DNA of 64,000 nt from IMG/VR virus record IMGVR_UViG_3300045996_000852, positions 64,001 through 128,000 of that record; one strand, given 5' to 3'. Made by a program: the position numbers and the translations under genes. The notes beneath the pieces were generated by a model. The model was not told the DNA's origin. It searched no databases and saw only the letters and a program-made list of their open reading frames with translations. Each line of letters starts with the position of its first letter. Position 1 is the first letter of the stretch. The DNA comes from a virus. Its lineage: Duplodnaviria; Heunggongvirae; Uroviricota; Caudoviricetes. Shown piece by piece: positions 24,456 through 60,568 of the stretch.

Positions 24456-25334
24456 TTAAACATTTGTTGCTTTTCTCTTATAAAATCCACCTCTTACATC
24501 TTCACCTTTAGCTACTCTTGATGCATAAGTTTTAGTAGCATCTGCTGACATAGCAAAAGATTTAATAACACCACCTCTTGTATTGTCATGCACCAAAGTA
24601 TTATCCTCACGGATATTGTAATTAGCGATAGCCTTTTGTACATCTGATTTTACACCAACAAATGTAATAGTGAAGCCCTTGTCTTCACAATTGGCTATCA
24701 TCTTTTTCACTTGAGTAGGTTGATATAACTTACTGTCATTCTCTCCACCATCAGTAAAGATTTTGATAAGAACCTTCTCTCCATTCTTAACTTTTGTTAA
24801 CAATACATCTAAAGTTCTACCAATTGCATCATTTAAAGCTGTCATATCTCTACCTCTCATATTTACTACTTTAGCTTGAGAGATAGGAACAAGCATTTGT
24901 TCAATTTTATAATCATTAGAACCTGAGAAGTGAACAAATGTATTGGTATAATCTACAGTATTATCCTTCTTAAGAAGTGATATTTCTTCATTAATACCAT
25001 CACAAGCTACTCTGATTTTATCACCACTGTTCATGCTACCAGAAGCATCCAGAATATGAACATTATGAATAGTAGGTTTACTTACAAGTGTAGGAGTGGT
25101 TGTTAATACTTTTACTACTTCAGTAATTTTAAGCTCTTTCTTGGGAGATTTCTTTGATGTTACCTTTTTTTCTTTTTGTGGAACAATTCCGGCCTTCTTT
25201 TCAAGGAATGCTTTATAAGCATCTGCTGATGGTTGACCAGCTTCCTTAGCTAATTTTTCTTTTCTGTCTTTATTGGACCTTTTGAAATTCTCCAATAATG
25301 CTTGATAAGCTTGGGCTAATGAATTTTTACTCAT
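24456..25334 (-). CDS. vWA domain protein with a basic N-terminal extension
   Basis: ILDASGSM (MIDAS), TALNDAIG, IFTDGGEN. Confidence 0.8.
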   Translation of the reverse strand: MSKNSLAQAYQALLENFKRSNKDRKEKLAKEAGQPSADAYKAFLEKKAGIVPQKEKKVTSKKSPKKELKITEVVKVLTTTPTLVSKPTIHNVHILDASGSMNSGDKIRVACDGINEEISLLKKDNTVDYTNTFVHFSGSNDYKIEQMLVPISQAKVVNMRGRDMTALNDAIGRTLDVLLTKVKNGEKVLIKIFTDGGENDSKLYQPTQVKKMIANCEDKGFTITFVGVKSDVQKAIANYNIREDNTLVHDNTRGGVIKSFAMSADATKTYASRVAKGEDVRGGFYKRKATNV

Positions 25335-25357
25335 TTGGTTTTCTGTTTTGGGGATTA

Positions 25358-26323
25358 TTAAAATTTGATTTCGGGATAAATTTCTTGCCAGTAACTTTTA
25401 GGTAATAAACCAGCTTCAAGGTCTTTATCAGAAACCAAATCAGCTATTTTAATTACTTTATTTGCAAGGTGTGTAGGTCTACTTCCAAGGTCTGTCTCTT
25501 CTTTCTTGGAGAAATCAAGGAAACAACCATTCTCATTCCTATAGAATGTAGCTACTGCATCAGCTTTACTGGTGAATGTTGTACTCATTAATCCTTCCAA
25601 TGCAATATCTAGTGCTGTTATATCCTCATCATCTTTCTTCATTACTTTCTTCTTCTGACCAACGTGACCATGAAACTGAATAAATGGAGCAGCATTCTGT
25701 TCAATAAAAGCTTTAATTTCACTAAACTTATTTCTAATGTACTTTACTCCACCATAGTCATCTACTTTCTTAATGTCAACCTTAGGATTCCTGACATTTT
25801 GATTGTACTCGTAAAGAGCAGCCTTATTCGAAAGTTCTGTAACGGATGTGATAGTATCAATAGCCAATATAGGAAAAGGCATGTTATTGATAAACACAAC
25901 AAGGTCTTCGTACATTTTCTTTCTTACTTGTGGGTCTCTTTCCTTTTCCATTGCTGTATACATCTTCCAGTATTCAGTCATGTTATTAGCTTTATCAAGC
26001 TCTGTAACAAGATCGAAAAGGGTTTGAGGAATCCAGCCGTACTTCTTGGTTTCCACATACTTATCTGCAACATCTTCATCCAGAAGGTTAGTCACATTGT
26101 CAGCATTGAAATATTTAGTACCTCTTTCAGCATCAGCTATCAAAACTTTGGGTACATTACAAAGTGATAATGTTCCTCCACTCTTAGGATATTTTACTAT
26201 CAAAAGATTGGTAGGTGATTTTAGCAACGGACCTTTCTTAATGAGTTTACCATTTGAATCTAATGGTAGTCGTTTAAACTCTGGTTTCTTGATTGTTGGT
26301 TCAATTTGTTTTACTTCAGCCAT
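25358..26323 (-). CDS. Sak4/AAA_24-like P-loop ATPase with a degenerate Walker A
   Basis: KYPKSGGT, IADAERG, LAIDTIT, ADAVA; likely start MAEVKQ. Confidence 0.6.
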   Translation of the reverse strand: MAEVKQIEPTIKKPEFKRLPLDSNGKLIKKGPLLKSPTNLLIVKYPKSGGTLSLCNVPKVLIADAERGTKYFNADNVTNLLDEDVADKYVETKKYGWIPQTLFDLVTELDKANNMTEYWKMYTAMEKERDPQVRKKMYEDLVVFINNMPFPILAIDTITSVTELSNKAALYEYNQNVRNPKVDIKKVDDYGGVKYIRNKFSEIKAFIEQNAAPFIQFHGHVGQKKKVMKKDDEDITALDIALEGLMSTTFTSKADAVATFYRNENGCFLDFSKKEETDLGSRPTHLANKVIKIADLVSDKDLEAGLLPKSYWQEIYPEIKF

Positions 26324-34660: not shown

Positions 34661-34991
34661 AATTCCTTACTTTTAGTTCATTATTAGGAAGTACTTTAAG
34701 TACAATTAAACTCTGTCCACTCGAATCCAATTTGATAATATCCCCTTTCTTGAAAGGATTATTATTAAGTTTTATACGAAATGGTCTAGTGTAACCGGAC
34801 CACTTGATAAAGTTAATGATATTCATTATAATTAGTACAACATCCAAAGCAATCATCCCATAGACTTCTTTCTGAAAGGCTACAATCATAAAAAGAATTG
34901 CACCTATTCCTGCTACTACCCATCCCCATCTGTTTTTTCTGCCTGTTAGATATACACTAAATATAACAAACGCTGCTGCTATCCAATCCAT
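34638..34991 (-). CDS. PnuC-like nicotinamide riboside transporter, short form
   Basis: Hydrophobic N-terminal helices WIAAAFVIFSVYLTGRKNRWGW...NIINFIKW. Confidence 0.55.
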   Translation of the reverse strand: MDWIAAAFVIFSVYLTGRKNRWGWVVAGIGAILFMIVAFQKEVYGMIALDVVLIIMNIINFIKWSGYTRPFRIKLNNNPFKKGDIIKLDSSGQSLIVLKVLPNNELKVRNYATSTRN

Positions 34992-50497: not shown

Positions 50498-50582
50498 CAA
50501 TGCCTTACCCACGGATGAACAGGTAAAGAACTACAGGTCTATCTCCCTGCTTGTTAGGCATCCGTTCATATTTTTCCGGGTG

Positions 50583-51039
50583 TGGAGGTGATCGGGGTCG
50601 AACCGATGTCCAAACATAATAATCAGTCGAGAGTTACGTGTGTGACTAGCTTTATCATCCCTGTCTTGGATTATCTCAGTTGTGAACTGGAAACTGTGCC
50701 TGTTTGCATAGTTATACTGTACACTCCACAGGCTGACTTCTAACAGTTACCTTTCTAAACCTCAGGTGGGTTCGGGAACTAGACTAATTCTAATTCTTCT
50801 TCTGCCACTACCTCAGCAGGGAACAGAGAAGTTAAGAAAGAATCAAGGTTTCCATCTTCTCCTACAGTCACGTTAGACTTAGCAGGAGAGTTTGCTTCAA
50901 CATTAACACTGTTAACATTAGAAGCGGCAACATTTGTGTTTGCGTTTATTTTTTGAATATTCAGATTATAGACCTAATTATCCAACGGTCTACACGCCCT
51001 CTTCCCATTACCCATGCTGTCAAAACCAAGTACACCCCC
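50583..51039 (-). ncRNA. ssrA: transfer-messenger RNA, about 457 nt, 3' CCA not encoded
   Basis: 5' GGGGGTGTACTTGGTTTTGAC; 3' GGACATCGGTTCGACCCCGATCACCTCCA; G3.U70 alanine identity pair; resume context AAAAAATAAAC-GCA. Confidence 0.93.
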
Positions 51040-54543: not shown

Positions 54544-54572
54544 GACAGTAGTTTTAGTTTTGTGATAAAAAG

Positions 54573-54598
54573 AAAAGGGAGCAATAAAGCCCCCTTTT
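54573..54598 (-). terminator. terminator after the vWA gene
   Basis: AAAAGGG..GC/GC..CCCTTTT hairpin followed by a U-run. Confidence 0.6.
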
Positions 54599-54617
54599 CA
54601 TAATAATGATACGTGTT

Positions 54618-55310
54618 TTAGAAATTAACAACAGCTTGTTGACTGCTGGAAGAAACACTTTGAGATACTACTCCCATTTGTTTCCTGATCTCAGAACCAG
54701 AAGCACCTACAGTTACAAGGCACTTGGTTGGGTCTAATCCCATAGCAACACATGCAGCCTCAAAGTTTGCAGCATTACCAACACCCAACATGTTGATTGT
54801 AAAAGAGTTAGCCCATGCTTCATTCCTCTTCAGGTCTTCAACAATAGCCTTTACTCTCTTATCAGCACCTCTGGAAGAAGAGTTATCCTCACCATCAGTA
54901 ATGATAAAGATATTTGTCCTTACCTCGATACCTTGGTCTTCCAAATCTTGTCTGTACTTTACCACATTTTCCAATGTTTCTTGTACAGCCTGATATAATG
55001 CTGTTCCACCACCAGTAGGTGCTGAATCCAGATAATCATCGGGGAGATTCAGGATTGGAGTAAAGCCCGATACGTGCTCTACTCTTTCACAGAACTTCAC
55101 ACATTTGATAACAATATCATTCTTCCTGTGTGAGTTCTTGAGTTCTTTCATAAATACTTCCCGGGCAGCATCATTCATTACATGTACGTAACTGTTGATG
55201 GATGGAGAAACGTCAACCACTACACCAAACATGATTACTGTTGATGTTTGATTTGCTAAAGCATTAGGGTCAAAGTTCTGCATGTTCAAATTAACGAAAC
55301 CTTCGTTCAT
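54618..55310 (-). CDS. TerY-like vWA domain protein
   Basis: VVDVSPS (MIDAS), GGGTALYQA, IITDGED. Confidence 0.75.
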   Translation of the reverse strand: MNEGFVNLNMQNFDPNALANQTSTVIMFGVVVDVSPSINSYVHVMNDAAREVFMKELKNSHRKNDIVIKCVKFCERVEHVSGFTPILNLPDDYLDSAPTGGGTALYQAVQETLENVVKYRQDLEDQGIEVRTNIFIITDGEDNSSSRGADKRVKAIVEDLKRNEAWANSFTINMLGVGNAANFEAACVAMGLDPTKCLVTVGASGSEIRKQMGVVSQSVSSSSQQAVVNF

Positions 55311-55340
55311 ATTAGTAGTTTTTGTAGTTAACACTTTTGT

Positions 55341-56138
55341 TTAGAAGTCAGTACTTTTTTGAATCCTTACTCCTTTTGCTTGTGCATCAGCGTAAATGTT
55401 ATTTACACCAACGTAGAAGTCAGAAGGTAAGCCCGGAACGTCACTCATACAATCTTCCAGAACAATCAGCTTCGGAGCTAATTGCGGAGCTATATCCAAC
55501 AATTGTCTCATTGAATTAGCAACACAGTGACTCCTTGCCTGTCCTGCAAGATAGATTGTATCATGGTCATTCAGCAATTGGAATATTGCCTGATTAACCT
55601 GAGTTGCAGGGTCAGAAGGAAGAGGAACATTTGCCCGGAATATACCGAAATGCTCAGTGAATGGATTTACTCCTTTGGTAATGAAGTTAACCCAACGTGA
55701 ATTCTTGTTCATCCACTCACGGATAGAATCAAAGAATACGGGATGGAATGCATGACCATTACTACCCATGAGGCAGTGTTCAGGCCATATGAAATGGTTG
55801 AATTCACCATTCTTTTCCAAGTCTTCTACATATTGCAGAGACATTGCAGGTTGAATTCTTGCAACATACTTACCATTCTTAATATCATCTGCACTGATAG
55901 GTGTGAATGGAGTTACGAGGTTACCTCTTGCATCAATCCACCATGCAGGATGTGCAATGTCCAGAGAATAGTGAGAATCCTGAGAGGCTAATATCCTGCT
56001 CGGATTCAGTTTCTTGATGAAGTCAGCCAGTCTCTCGGTATCTTTTACTGCACCTGCAACAGGTAAAGCAGCACCGGGAACATCATGGAAATCAATTTGA
56101 GCATCAATAACGAGTAATGCATCGTTGTTCTTGTTCAT
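55341..56138 (-). CDS. nicotinamidase/isochorismatase family hydrolase (PncA-like)
   Basis: VIDAQIDF, SQDSH, WPEHC, FITKG, SHCV (D-K-C triad plus metal ligands). Confidence 0.85.
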   Translation of the reverse strand: MNKNNDALLVIDAQIDFHDVPGAALPVAGAVKDTERLADFIKKLNPSRILASQDSHYSLDIAHPAWWIDARGNLVTPFTPISADDIKNGKYVARIQPAMSLQYVEDLEKNGEFNHFIWPEHCLMGSNGHAFHPVFFDSIREWMNKNSRWVNFITKGVNPFTEHFGIFRANVPLPSDPATQVNQAIFQLLNDHDTIYLAGQARSHCVANSMRQLLDIAPQLAPKLIVLEDCMSDVPGLPSDFYVGVNNIYADAQAKGVRIQKSTDF

Positions 56139-56155
56139 GTTATTTGGTTTAAAAT

Positions 56156-57772
56156 TTATGAAGCTTTGTTTAAGAGATAAAGTGTGTTGGATTCTAACAT
56201 AAGGATACCAGCATCAGTCATATATAACCTTGAATCCCTAGTACAAATAGATAAATCCATTCGTGCTATTTCTGTTCCAAGCTGATAAATTGCAATATGT
56301 CCATTCTCAGGAACAAATACGTTATCACCTTTAGAGCAGAAATGTGGTAAATAATCAAGATCAATAGAACTTGTTGGACTCATTGGATTGTAAATGGTAT
56401 ATTCTATTCTGGACTTTGTTTTTACTTCAGTACCCAAGTATGGACCTGCATAGAATGCATTCTTTAATCCTTTGGGAACTTTAACCAGATTATACCTGTT
56501 CATCTGAGGTAAATTCAGGTATACACTACCACCAAAATTCTGTATAGGTGTATCTCTGAGGATGATTGACTTGGTAAATACTACAGTACTTGTAGAATCT
56601 ATACCAAATTGTTGTTTATAAAGGTCAATATTCCTCTGTTGATCTGTAGCATAATCAAATACTACCAGTGAACCATTGTGATAATAAAATTGTGGCTGAT
56701 AAAAGGATAACTTCTGATTATTAGAGAATATCAAGTCATTACCTTTTACAAGAGCAAAGTTGGTTCCAGCAGGGTATAACTGGTCAGCATCCATTGACTT
56801 TAGGAAGCTTATCTGACCCCCTATAGCACAACTTATTAATAACCAGCTACCATCCTTGATATTCCTTACGGCAACACTGTTTGTACAAGCATTGATATGA
56901 GAAATGTCATGAGATATTTCTCTTACTGTAAGAGATGTAGAGGCTATTTTCTGTTTAACTACAGTAGATACAGGAACATGTACACCACCAAAATCTACCA
57001 TATACCGTCTTCCTGAGAATATATCCCTGAATTGTTTCTCAATCTCACCTTTTGGTGGTTGATACAATGCAGGTATTTTTATCCCGGGGATGTTAGATAG
57101 ATATGATTTGTGAGACTTTACCCTTTGTTCAAGTGATTCTTTATTACCCGGAATCACCCATTTGAAAGGATGACAATACGTTGTGGTCCAGAAGGCCAAT
57201 ATATCATAAGCCCAAGCATCAGTACTCTTATTAATCATGGCAGTGGTCCAATCTCTTATCTCATCAAGTAGTACACCTGAATGAGGCTGAGAATCAGTCT
57301 GGTAGCTATCCACATCAACAAACAATACTTTACCTGTTTTGCCTACAAATATATTGTACATATTCAAGTCACCAATAACAATATTATTCTTATGTAATTC
57401 TTCCAACGAAGCTTTAAGAAATGCTAAAATCTTAAGTTTCAATGAATCTGTAATGTTATTTGAATTACAAAAGCCCTTATTGAATAAGTTATTGAATAAC
57501 CAGTAGTCATTAAAGTTTACATAATCCATATCAAAACCAGCAACATTACCTTTATCATCAAAATATATCTCTTTAGGAGCTACAAATGAATCTTTATTAA
57601 GGCTAGATAATGTTTCTAAATGTTTAGCAAAACTTGCCTTCCTTGGACTGTGATAGATTTTAACCACTCTGGATTTATCAGTAGGATGTTCAAGTATTCT
57701 GCCTTCCCCACCAGATGCTATTTCCTTAGCTTTGGTTAGATTCAGAGTTTTCCCTGATTTGGTCTTGTACAT
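56156..57772 (-). CDS. Ser/Thr protein kinase, TerY-P type, with a long C-terminal extension
   Basis: ASGGEG, VVKIY, IVIGDLNMYNI, FVDVDSY. Confidence 0.85.
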   Translation of the reverse strand: MYKTKSGKTLNLTKAKEIASGGEGRILEHPTDKSRVVKIYHSPRKASFAKHLETLSSLNKDSFVAPKEIYFDDKGNVAGFDMDYVNFNDYWLFNNLFNKGFCNSNNITDSLKLKILAFLKASLEELHKNNIVIGDLNMYNIFVGKTGKVLFVDVDSYQTDSQPHSGVLLDEIRDWTTAMINKSTDAWAYDILAFWTTTYCHPFKWVIPGNKESLEQRVKSHKSYLSNIPGIKIPALYQPPKGEIEKQFRDIFSGRRYMVDFGGVHVPVSTVVKQKIASTSLTVREISHDISHINACTNSVAVRNIKDGSWLLISCAIGGQISFLKSMDADQLYPAGTNFALVKGNDLIFSNNQKLSFYQPQFYYHNGSLVVFDYATDQQRNIDLYKQQFGIDSTSTVVFTKSIILRDTPIQNFGGSVYLNLPQMNRYNLVKVPKGLKNAFYAGPYLGTEVKTKSRIEYTIYNPMSPTSSIDLDYLPHFCSKGDNVFVPENGHIAIYQLGTEIARMDLSICTRDSRLYMTDAGILMLESNTLYLLNKAS

Positions 57773-58223
57773 AATCTGATAAGTATTTGTTATAAGGTAA
57801 AAGTGTTAATGAACAACCTTCTTGGCACATAAGGTCTGTTAACCATTCATCCCAAGATAAATGTATAAGGTCAATAAATTCTTGTGGACTACCTCTTTGT
57901 TTAAATCTTTCAACAAATACTTCTTTGGCTTTATCTGTAGCCATAGGAATAACAAGATGGAATCCTATTTGTTCTTCATATAAAGCAGACCTTACTACTT
58001 TATGTGTAGAAACAAGGATATAATCATATTTTCCCATATTCTCTTTGATGTGTTGAATGTAATTTTCAGGAAATTCTCGATTCCTTACTTTCTTACCTTC
58101 ATCATTTGTACTCCAAGAGAAATCAGAAGAATCACTGTCTAGTATTTTGAGATCACCACAATTCTTATGTAGATGGGTCTTTCCCATCCCCGGAAATGCT
58201 GCTATAATCTTTGTCTTAATCAT
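57726..58223 (-). CDS. small P-loop NTPase (nucleotide-kinase-like)
   Basis: AFPGMGKT, DSDSS. Confidence 0.65.
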   Translation of the reverse strand: MIKTKIIAAFPGMGKTHLHKNCGDLKILDSDSSDFSWSTNDEGKKVRNREFPENYIQHIKENMGKYDYILVSTHKVVRSALYEEQIGFHLVIPMATDKAKEVFVERFKQRGSPQEFIDLIHLSWDEWLTDLMCQEGCSLTLLPYNKYLSDYVQDQIRENSESNQS

Positions 58224-58831
58224 ATTCTTAATCCTTTAAAGTTTACACCAAAATGTATAAAATCTCCAATACTTTCTCTTCCAGTTGGTAAAGCAAAATA
58301 CCTTGAGCCATCTCTTCTGTATTCTACATTCATTCCATACTCTTCACATTCCTGAAATCTAGGAGGTGAACCGAATAGCTTTAAATGTAATTTATCAATA
58401 GACTTATCAGAACGCACATCAAATTCAGTGGGTCTAACCATTCTTAGATGAGGCTCACTAACAGTAAAAGATACATTGTTTCTTTTTACTGTTAATATTC
58501 CTTTATACTTAACCATTTGAGTTCCGTCCTTTAGAGATTTAAAATATTCATCTTTGGTAGCACATATTCGCATAATGGAATCAAACTGTTTCCAGCTAAC
58601 CCATTGGAATAATTCTAAGAATGTTAATATACTTCTTGCATAATTTTTAACACTCTCAGTATATATACTATCAAATAGAACATCTGATATTTTATCAATA
58701 AATTCAGGATACTCATTACCAATTTGATTAATAGTTATCCAACTATTATTTCTGGAAGATGGTCCTTCCTCAAGAAGAACCCATATTGTCCCCTTCTTGA
58801 TGTACTTGGACTGGTTCACTATCTTGTACAT
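58220..58831 (-). CDS. hypothetical protein
   Basis: 203-aa ORF. Confidence 0.5.
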   Translation of the reverse strand: MYKIVNQSKYIKKGTIWVLLEEGPSSRNNSWITINQIGNEYPEFIDKISDVLFDSIYTESVKNYARSILTFLELFQWVSWKQFDSIMRICATKDEYFKSLKDGTQMVKYKGILTVKRNNVSFTVSEPHLRMVRPTEFDVRSDKSIDKLHLKLFGSPPRFQECEEYGMNVEYRRDGSRYFALPTGRESIGDFIHFGVNFKGLRI

Positions 58832-59489
58832 AACTTATGATTGAAAGGTCATCTGCAATAGTCCATGAATCTCTCTTTAATATATTCCATTGTCTTTGGA
58901 GATAGTTCTCTCCTGTAGGTGGATGTAATAAAAGAGATAATGGGTTTGAGCATTTTGGTTGTGAGTCAATGAGTTGTGGTCTATCAATAGACCTTATACC
59001 ATCTGAGCATATCTGGAACTTATTTACATTCTGATATGTTTTTGTGGTATACATCTTCAAGAATACTGGTAAAGCATCATCCCTCATGACATATGCTAAA
59101 TAGTCAGGTTGATTATTCTGCTCTATTTCATATTCTATATCATTCACATAATAATAACCATCACCGAAAGCTCTTACCTTCAATTCTTTGGTTAATTGAT
59201 TATATGAGAATAATATACATGTAGAAAGCATACTCATCTCAGTTATCCCAAGCATTATGGCAAGCATCTTCAGGCTATTATAAACCTCTGAAGCTCGTAG
59301 ATTGGTAGTTGGGTCTTGAAATCCCTTAGCAAATAAATATGCTAAGGTTTGTGAAGCCCAATGAGATTTATATCCAGAGGAGCACCCATCGAATACTCCT
59401 CCGTATATAAAATCATCAACTTCCTGCCAATAGATAGAATCTTCACATGAATTGTGAGTTCCACCTCGAACATTTAAAGTTGCTATCAT
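58770..59489 (-). CDS. PP2C-family protein phosphatase, TerY-P type
   Basis: RGGTHNSCEDS, VFDGCSSG, FGDG, CSDGI, DDLSII. Confidence 0.8.
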   Translation of the reverse strand: MIATLNVRGGTHNSCEDSIYWQEVDDFIYGGVFDGCSSGYKSHWASQTLAYLFAKGFQDPTTNLRASEVYNSLKMLAIMLGITEMSMLSTCILFSYNQLTKELKVRAFGDGYYYVNDIEYEIEQNNQPDYLAYVMRDDALPVFLKMYTTKTYQNVNKFQICSDGIRSIDRPQLIDSQPKCSNPLSLLLHPPTGENYLQRQWNILKRDSWTIADDLSIISYVQDSEPVQVHQEGDNMGSS

Positions 59490-59645: not shown

Positions 59646-60137
59646 TCATCGTTGCTTAAGAGTTGGTTCATTTGATGATGATTTAAGAAATTCACGAATT
59701 TCTGTTGTGGAATTAAATCTGAGAACATCAGGAATAATAACAAGGTCAACACCTTCTACACGAATAGCAGGTTTACCATAGATTATATCACTATTCTTGA
59801 AGTTCTTGATTTTGTTTTTTGAGGTATCTAAAGCTTTCAACATTTTCTCCACATGATGTATCTCATTGATAATCATTGTACAATCCACACATTTGATATT
59901 ATCAGCCATAAAAGCTCTATCTACCTCATTGATATAAGGACTTCTTTTCTTGTTCCTGAAGGTTAAGAAATCCGAATCCAGTTGTACAAGTAATATATCA
60001 CATTCCCTTTTACATTTTGTTAAATATAATATGTGCAAAGGATGTAATAGATCATAACAACCAGAAGTAACACCTATTACTTTGCCTTCGAAAGCATTTA
60101 GGTATTGAGCAGCTTGTTTAATGTCGTAGAATGTCAT
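59646..60137 (-). CDS. HIGH-family nucleotidyltransferase (RfaE-C/TagD-like)
   Basis: TSGCYDLLHPLH, LDSD, R...IKCVD, STTEI. Confidence 0.75.
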   Translation of the reverse strand: MTFYDIKQAAQYLNAFEGKVIGVTSGCYDLLHPLHILYLTKCKRECDILLVQLDSDFLTFRNKKRSPYINEVDRAFMADNIKCVDCTMIINEIHHVEKMLKALDTSKNKIKNFKNSDIIYGKPAIRVEGVDLVIIPDVLRFNSTTEIREFLKSSSNEPTLKQR

Positions 60138-60139
60138 GA

Positions 60140-60568
60140 TTAATCTTTGAGATATTGATAAGCAACACAATATTTTTCAAGCCTGTCGAAATCTTTCTTC
60201 CTTAATCCTTTCAATCTACTAACCTTGGTGTTGTGTTCAAGGTCAGCTATTTTTACGGCTTTACAGTCCGGGTCCAAAGCAATCCTTTTGATATAATCAT
60301 TCTGATAATCTTCATTATTCAGTCTGGTAAGTATCCTGAGTTTGCTAACTATTGGTTGATAAAATCCCATTTCTAATAGCTTATCAAACCATTGTTCACC
60401 TTTATCTTCTGGTAAATCATGTAATAGAGCAAGAATCTTTCTGATGTCTGTAGTTTGCTTACTCATTACATACAAAAGATGCATGATGTAAGGTTCCCCA
60501 CCCTTATCAAAATCATTCTTAAACTCTTCAGCTACAATAGCAAATGCTAAGGCTAATAGTTTCTTCAT
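60140..60568 (-). CDS. HD-domain hydrolase (SpoT/Mesh1-like)
   Basis: DKGGEPYIMH, ALLHDLPED, VKIADLEHN. Confidence 0.8.
   Translation of the reverse strand: MKKLLALAFAIVAEEFKNDFDKGGEPYIMHLLYVMSKQTTDIRKILALLHDLPEDKGEQWFDKLLEMGFYQPIVSKLRILTRLNNEDYQNDYIKRIALDPDCKAVKIADLEHNTKVSRLKGLRKKDFDRLEKYCVAYQYLKD

Follow-up and report, generated by a model that had tools for sequence, protein, structure and literature searches.

Four genes, encoding a PP2C-type phosphatase, a Ser/Thr kinase, a long-form nicotinamidase and a vWA protein, lie in one gene block of the phage DNA analysed here, and they constitute one inherited cassette that is solidly established by its recurrence in phage and bacterial genomes. 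The window, by which we mean the whole stretch of 64,000 nucleotides, covers bases 64001-128000 of IMGVR_UViG_3300045996_000852, a 165,392-bp virus record in IMG/VR that has direct terminal repeats. The composition of the cassette suggests a phosphorylation switch on NAD+ recycling, and we moderately favour the view that it is a phospho-switched nicotinamidase feeding NAD+ resynthesis. In the following, ISO is used as a label for the long-form nicotinamidase, a PncA-like protein of the isochorismatase family.

Conservation of the four-gene cassette

A tblastn search detected the kinase and vWA genes together in three huge phages and one gut phage fragment, and in two of these loci the genes abut in the order ISO>vWA>PP2C>kinase. 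When IMG/VR was scanned with ISO as seed, all four genes were present in 71 of 80 viral loci, with the exceptions mostly at contig ends. Seeding with the kinase recovered the complete set in 40 of 44 viral loci, many of them on contigs of 360-618 kb, as well as in 47 of 80 loci from species-representative bacterial genomes. These bacterial four-gene loci belong to Acidobacteriota, Armatimonadota (including complete chromosomes), Gammaproteobacteria, Myxococcota and other phyla, at least eight phyla according to the labels in the record titles.

Redundancy reduction left 72 loci from phages and bacteria. The kinase is found in all 72, vWA in 70, and ISO and PP2C in 69 each, while the next commonest neighbour family reaches 12. 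The association is seen in hundreds of unrelated loci, far beyond chance. The order is ISO>vWA>PP2C>kinase in 53 of the non-redundant loci and PP2C>kinase>ISO>vWA in nine, the latter group taking in the window and its nearest relatives, and both orders keep the pairs ISO-vWA and PP2C-kinase whole. The distance matrices of the four proteins are closely correlated (pairwise r 0.84-0.93; 0 of 500 permutations reached the observed value). Since related loci share ancestry, this correlation shows inheritance as a unit and not physical contact. An earlier note, made from the sequence of the window, had suspected that the nicotinamidase belongs to the system; with its presence in nearly every locus and its divergence in step with the other three proteins, it is a fixed fourth component and no chance neighbour, and the neighbourhood of vWA, PncA, kinase and PP2C which that note had singled out is conserved across phages and bacteria.

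In seven Chloroflexota loci (L095, L097, L098, L101-L103 and L114), ISO>vWA was detected within 8 kb but neither a PP2C nor a kinase gene at the thresholds used, which suggests ISO-vWA as the tightest pair. The closest relative of the window cassette is located on JBATMZ010000124.1, a 141-kb contig of a Saprospiraceae metagenome-assembled genome (MAG; L085/L214). Its ISO is 74% identical, and the gene order is that of the window, with a nucleotidyltransferase gene inside the cassette. The contig probably stems from a phage that was binned into the MAG, and is a hint that the host belongs to the Saprospiraceae (Bacteroidota).

The gene block in the window

The window has a G+C content of 33-38% and every sizeable open reading frame (ORF) is on the minus strand. 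A DNA-level search of deposited phage genomes gave no close relative of the window, only short conserved pieces. Two soil-metagenome DNA sequencing runs are listed as containing part of the window (shares 0.49 and 0.10), while no RNA run is listed for it; these runs do not enter into the evidence given here. The block comprises six ORFs, transcribed in the order PP2C, 203-aa ORFan, P-loop protein, kinase, ISO and vWA, and is closed by a terminator-like hairpin directly after the vWA stop codon:

58770..59489, minus strand: PP2C-type Ser/Thr phosphatase, 239 amino acids (aa); cassette component (Pfam PP2C_2, conserved Asp residues)
58220..58831, minus strand: ORFan, 203 aa, between the PP2C and kinase genes; outside the cassette
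57726..58223, minus strand: P-loop small-molecule kinase-like protein with nucleoside monophosphate (NMP)-kinase fold, 165 aa; outside the cassette
56156..57772, minus strand: kinase gene, whole, 538 aa; cassette component
57008..57772, minus strand: N-terminal YegI-type Ser/Thr kinase domain of the kinase gene, aa 1-255 (motifs, Pkinase, hhalign, AlphaFold2)
56156..56932, minus strand: C-terminal all-beta domain of the kinase gene, aa 281-538 plus stop codon; 7-bladed beta-propeller (AlphaFold2, Foldseek)
55341..56138, minus strand: ISO, PncA-like isochorismatase-family hydrolase, 265 aa; cassette component
54618..55334, minus strand: YegL/TerY-like vWA protein, 238 aa, GTG start with an alternative ATG at 55310; cassette component
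54572..54599, minus strand: intrinsic-terminator-like hairpin, 11-bp stem with 6 G-C pairs, then TTTTT

The six ORFs and the terminator have the coordinates that the earlier note had given, and each of its domain calls was borne out.

Phosphatase, kinase and vWA protein

Among 67 PP2C sequences of the family, D17, D34-G35, G109-D110-G111, D163-G164 and D213-D214 are invariant, including the metal-binding Asp residues, and the family profile matches S. aureus Stp1 in the PDB. The match of the window protein to Pfam PP2C_2 is below threshold (E 1e-3), that of its orthologues ranges from 1e-10 to 1e-13. An hhalign comparison with E. coli PphC gave 90.6% (E 1.3e-6), covering the N-terminal half only.

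The kinase family is characterized by the invariant residues G21, G22, K38, H127, D135, D153, D155 and S156; 90% or more of the sequences also have N140, and the motifs GGEG, IGDLNxxN and DVDS are conserved throughout. Pfam Pkinase matches 48 of 60 family members, and hhalign aligns the whole kinase domain with E. coli YegI (99.2%, E 1.7e-19). In the AlphaFold2 model of the window kinase (pLDDT, the score of the predicted local distance difference test, 93.3; predicted template modelling score 0.89), a domain of the eukaryotic protein kinase type (aa 1-255) is followed by a 28-strand, 7-bladed beta-propeller (aa 281-538). Foldseek matched the model best to kinase-WD40 (LRRK2) and to the propellers of Vps18/39, BamB and Fbw7. 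None of the Pfam matches of the 60 kinases was to a TerY-C domain. Kinases of a gut-phage and Lachnospiraceae branch (L016-L049 and related loci, e.g., L018:9206-10933) carry a Cys/His-rich CPxC insert between the kinase domain and the propeller, which is reminiscent of the zinc ribbon in TerY-P kinases and is missing from the window kinase.

For the vWA family, the metal ion-dependent adhesion site is intact, with D41, T111 and D147 invariant and S43 and S45 conserved, and 62-63 of 65 sequences have the C-terminal motif S224-x-S226...S231. The hhalign comparison with E. coli YegL (96%, E 3.8e-9) extends over residues 22-203 of 219 and includes the Ser-rich C-terminal tail.

On these profile comparisons, the window triad is a distant homologue of E. 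coli YegL-PphC-YegI, which we take to be a TerY-P triad. The suggestion in the earlier note of a TerY-P-like triad thus holds for all three proteins, given that YegL-PphC-YegI is taken as TerY-P-type. The TerY-P triad is said to have been described by Anantharaman, Iyer and Aravind in 2012; our definition of it follows PMC11090510. PADLOC returned no TerY-P-type match at E<=1 for any component, and the E. coli YegL and PphC controls were equally without a match.

The nicotinamidase and its link to NAD salvage

In 73 ISO sequences both the catalytic triad (D12, K155, C205) and the metal site (D54, H56, H63, H121, including the histidine of the WPxHC motif) are invariant. Nicotinamidases came first when the ISO profile was compared with the PDB, yeast Pnc1 (6.9e-21) being followed by the enzymes of P. 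horikoshii, A. baumannii and M. tuberculosis. The match to Pnc1 is in two pieces, split by a conserved, family-specific insertion of ~45 residues, and the DxH and WPxHC segments align to the yeast enzyme, as do the motifs of the catalytic triad. The window protein itself scores 24.4 bits against the Pfam Isochorismatase family (cut-off 27), a 43%-identical orthologue 28.7 bits.

Bacterial relatives of ISO that stand outside the cassette are encoded in operons of the type ISO>nicotinate phosphoribosyltransferase (NAPRTase)>NAD synthase in Peribacillus, Paenibacillus and Robertmurraya, and a further stand-alone relative adjoins the NAPRTase gene in Novispirillum. Because of the nicotinamidase active site and these operons, the ISO subfamily can be assigned, as far as sequence and gene context tell, to PncA of the Preiss-Handler route. 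The cassette itself has a comparable neighbourhood: NAPRTase, NadE, Nudix/NrtR or NAD-dependent ligase genes flank it in ~21 of the 72 loci (NAPRTase in 9, NAD synthase in 7, Nudix, NrtR or nucleotidyltransferase in 12, NAD-dependent ligase in 4). The nine NAPRTase-flanked loci are viral apart from one Patescibacteria MAG, and NAPRTase is adjacent to the cassette in 15 kinase-seeded bacterial loci. Since bacterial loci contain all four genes and adjacent NAPRTase genes, the cassette is also a cellular, salvage-linked operon, held in common with phages. On one 161-kb viral contig (L205:3307-10644), genes for NAD synthase, NAPRTase and a DUF5662 protein are located between the PP2C and kinase genes.

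The 165-kb genome of the phage studied here gave no match to the NAPRTase/NadV family and none to NAD synthase, so the steps after nicotinate would depend on the host. At 34785-34991 of the window (minus strand), a 119-aa frame has a short PnuC-like match (PnuC being a transporter of NMN or nicotinamide riboside) to positions 3-71 of the 175-position Pfam model (E 1.2e-13), and it may encode a truncated or divergent transporter.

A proposed phosphorylation switch on NAD+ recycling

We propose that the nicotinamidase is the output of the cassette and would convert nicotinamide, e.g., from NAD+ cleavage, to nicotinate, from which host PncB, NadD and NadE would rebuild NAD+; the host enzymes are invoked because the phage lacks NAPRTase and NAD synthase. 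The vWA protein would bind the nicotinamidase as an adaptor or gate, and its Ser-rich C-terminal tail may be the site that is written by the kinase and erased by PP2C. The propeller of the kinase would sense the trigger, maybe a protein or a ligand. In this way the cassette could keep NAD+ supplied, or restore it, during phage infection. This switch mechanism is inferred, and we hold a phospho-switched nicotinamidase to be the fairly probable function of the cassette. A broader statement, that recycling of nicotinamide to NAD+ is gated by reversible Ser/Thr phosphorylation via a triad of the YegL/PphC/YegI (TerY-P) type, common to many bacterial phyla and to large phages, which would manage with it the NAD+ pool under attack by bacterial immunity, is put forward tentatively.

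The predicted ISO-vWA complex is consistent with the proposed contact. It scored 0.44 against 0.01 for the best control, which is a weak pass since scores up to 0.60 count as weak; 58 of 80 solved complexes and 2 of 110 mismatched pairs attained that mark. The runs shared 21% or more of their contacts, with a partner pLDDT of 78 or higher.

Several points weigh against a phospho-switched nicotinamidase. The complex prediction for ISO and vWA gave a weak contact, with a score of 0.00 in one of its three runs. In the literature we found no experiment that links phosphorylation to nicotinamidase activity for any organism, and the substrates of E. coli YegI are unknown (bioRxiv 10.1101/819920). 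Certain bacterial genomes encode a kinase homologue on its own, and in LR756511 the triad has no ISO gene within 20 kb. Taken singly, the window proteins score under the Pfam gathering thresholds; for their orthologues clear Pfam matches were obtained (PP2C_2 down to 1e-13, Pkinase in 48 of 60, VWA in 25 of 65). Any gain of NAD+ for this phage would, judged by its gene content, depend on the host. Finally, control may run from enzyme to switch instead of from switch to enzyme.

An alternative with reversed control is regarded as unlikely. Here, the nicotinamidase-like protein and vWA would sense nicotinamide and report NAD+ cleavage, the kinase and phosphatase would relay this to other targets in phage or host, and phosphorylation would be the main output. 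The large, protein-binding propeller of the kinase and the inheritance of the cassette as a unit would suit such a sensor, as would the fact that, according to published abstracts, nicotinamide is the direct product of NADase defences. However, the catalytic and metal residues are without exception invariant and the stand-alone relatives are the PncA of salvage operons, which fits a working enzyme over a sensor; moreover, the adjacent NAPRTase and NadE use the product of the nicotinamidase.

It is also quite improbable that the cassette is a mobile TerY-P-like system for defence or superinfection exclusion, whose effector removes nicotinamide and thereby starves competing phages that rebuild NAD+ from it by NARP1 or NARP2. 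Modules like TerY-P are reported to act against phages on their own (PMC11090510), both NARP1 and NARP2 need nicotinamide according to published abstracts, and the cassette is found in Lachnospiraceae and other bacterial contigs, possibly prophages. Nevertheless, its location in chromosomal operons beside NAPRTase and NadE across many phyla is a biosynthetic context, huge phages, up to 618 kb in size, also carry the cassette, and no nuclease or other killing effector is conserved beside it in the 72 loci.

We strongly disfavour a set of neighbours that share no function, in which kinase and phosphatase would help to take over the host, with the nicotinamidase as a common auxiliary metabolic gene. 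Other phages are known to encode kinases that modify proteins of the host, and the block in the window is broken by two unrelated genes; but the four genes co-occur from both seeds, in phages and at least eight bacterial phyla and in two orders, and they diverge together. That the triad mimics or titrates a host TerY-P system and so neutralises it is hardly credible: it would agree with the homology to YegL-PphC-YegI, taken as TerY-P-type, but many bacteria have this cassette as an operon of their chromosome, the complete set of catalytic residues is a poor fit to a decoy, and the nicotinamidase would be left without a role. The earlier note had considered control of NAD or nicotinamide turnover along with neutralisation of a host TerY-P system and exclusion of competing phages; the first is supported by the NAPRTase, NadE and NrtR neighbours and the PncB-linked operons, while for the other two nothing was found.

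Inserted genes and other neighbours

Neither the ORFan nor the P-loop gene occurs in any of the other cassette loci surveyed in the ISO- and kinase-seeded scans. Homologues of the P-loop protein in other large phages have unrelated contexts, either beside dGTPase-like or dCMP deaminase genes or among small genes. Therefore, these two genes are an insertion specific to this phage and do not belong to the cassette. The idea of a four- or five-component system is retained for four components only, since no other locus includes the P-loop kinase or the hypothetical gene. The window cassette is set apart by its permuted order, by the two-gene insertion and by the lack of phage-encoded downstream salvage enzymes.

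The ORFan overlaps the 3' end of the PP2C gene by 62 nt. It has no Pfam or PHROG relative and no usable one in the Atlas, where its model is poor; a match to NIF is weak (E 0.0075). The P-loop protein contains a Walker A motif, belongs with phrog_4182 (6.6e-52) and was modelled by AlphaFold2 with a pLDDT of 96.2; a sequence search of the PDB was without a match. Its best Foldseek matches are Fap7/AK6 and human nicotinamide riboside kinase 1 (NRK1), with TM scores of 0.5-0.6. A function as ribosylnicotinamide kinase was considered but is not established, NRK1 being level with Fap7/AK6 and other NMP kinases.

Directly upstream of the cassette are two further genes:

59646..60170, minus strand: HIGH-motif nucleotidyltransferase (CTP_transf_like; PF01467 1.8e-6; RfaE domain II 8e-16)
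60140..60568, minus strand: HD-domain phosphohydrolase, SpoT-hydrolase-like (phrog_990 1.5e-36; TIGR00691 8e-5)

A nucleotidyltransferase gene is beside or inside the cassette in L005/L166, L006/L165, L009/L169, L085 and L173. In L005/L166 and L085 it separates the kinase gene from the ISO gene; four other loci of the lineage have it close to the cassette. The protein resembles RfaE-II and TagD, with no match to NadR or NadD among those listed. An HD-domain gene is near the cassette in 8 of the 72 loci.

In five loci of the gut-phage type (including L018:5367-6818, L050, L064 and L116), a gene just upstream of the cassette encodes a DUF2828/DUF7788 protein that contains a second vWA domain, and a Thg1-like tRNA-His guanylyltransferase gene is nearby in four viral loci (L064:5925-6830, L177, L190 and L207). 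Within the window, but far from the cassette, there is at 24459-25397 (minus strand) a second, weak match to the hidden Markov model of the cassette vWA (E 4e-5), in a 292-aa ORF. ARAGORN identified a phage-encoded tmRNA at 50582-51039 (minus strand) with the tag peptide AEEELELV*.

Comparison with known systems

The cassette shares with YegL-PphC-YegI a vWA protein with an adhesion-site motif and a Ser-rich C-terminal tail, a PP2C and a YegI-type Ser/Thr kinase, and the usual order in its relatives, vWA>PP2C>kinase, is like that of the E. coli triad. PphC is annotated as a protein-serine/threonine phosphatase, like the PP2C of the cassette, and YegI is a demonstrated active Ser/Thr kinase (bioRxiv 10.1101/819920). 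It differs from the TerY-P triad in the nicotinamidase as a fixed fourth gene and, in the window, in the order permuted to PP2C>kinase>ISO>vWA with two genes interposed. The C-terminus of TerY-P kinases is a zinc ribbon in the CoCoNuT-linked form or an OB fold in the anti-phage form (PMC11090510), whereas the window kinase is predicted to end in a 7-bladed beta-propeller, with neither zinc ribbon nor OB fold in the model. Taken together, the cassette would be a TerY-P-type triad with a fixed metabolic output.

With PncA and Pnc1, ISO has in common the Asp-Lys-Cys triad, the Asp/His metal site and the WPxHC motif, and its cellular members precede PncB and NadE. Unlike these enzymes, it is a long form of ~265 aa with an insertion of ~45 residues, and in phages it is obligately tied to the triad.

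Rebuilding of NAD+ from breakdown products or precursors by phage-encoded enzymes is likewise the function of NARP1-3. NARP1 consists of Adps and Namat and NARP2 of NadV and NMNAT, and NARP3 combines PnuC with a NadR-like protein (PMC13464706). In contrast to these systems, the route of the cassette would be deamidated, via nicotinate, and none of the NARP enzymes is part of it. The gene pairs of NARP2 and NARP3 were not found in the 165-kb genome, which has the short PnuC-like frame only, and no search was made for Adps and Namat. No NARP has been described with a kinase, phosphatase and vWA module (PMC13464706).

In full-text literature searches, no publication was found in which a nicotinamidase or isochorismatase is linked with vWA, PP2C and kinase, and broad surveys covering jumbo phages and viral NAD+/ADP-ribose systems mention neither PncA nor TerY/PP2C. 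In agreement with the earlier note, which had not recognised the arrangement as a described one, we found no description of the four-gene unit in the searchable literature.

NAD+ depletion is a major anti-phage strategy of bacteria, and the answers of phages that have been described, NARP1-3, all use the amidated route or import of nicotinamide riboside (PMC13464706). Since the cassette is small, widespread and made up of assayable enzymes, the proposed switch is directly testable. If it is true, the cassette would add a deamidated route and a post-translational switch to the answers of phages against NAD+ depletion, and the orphan TerY-P/YegI family would gain its first defined biochemical output.

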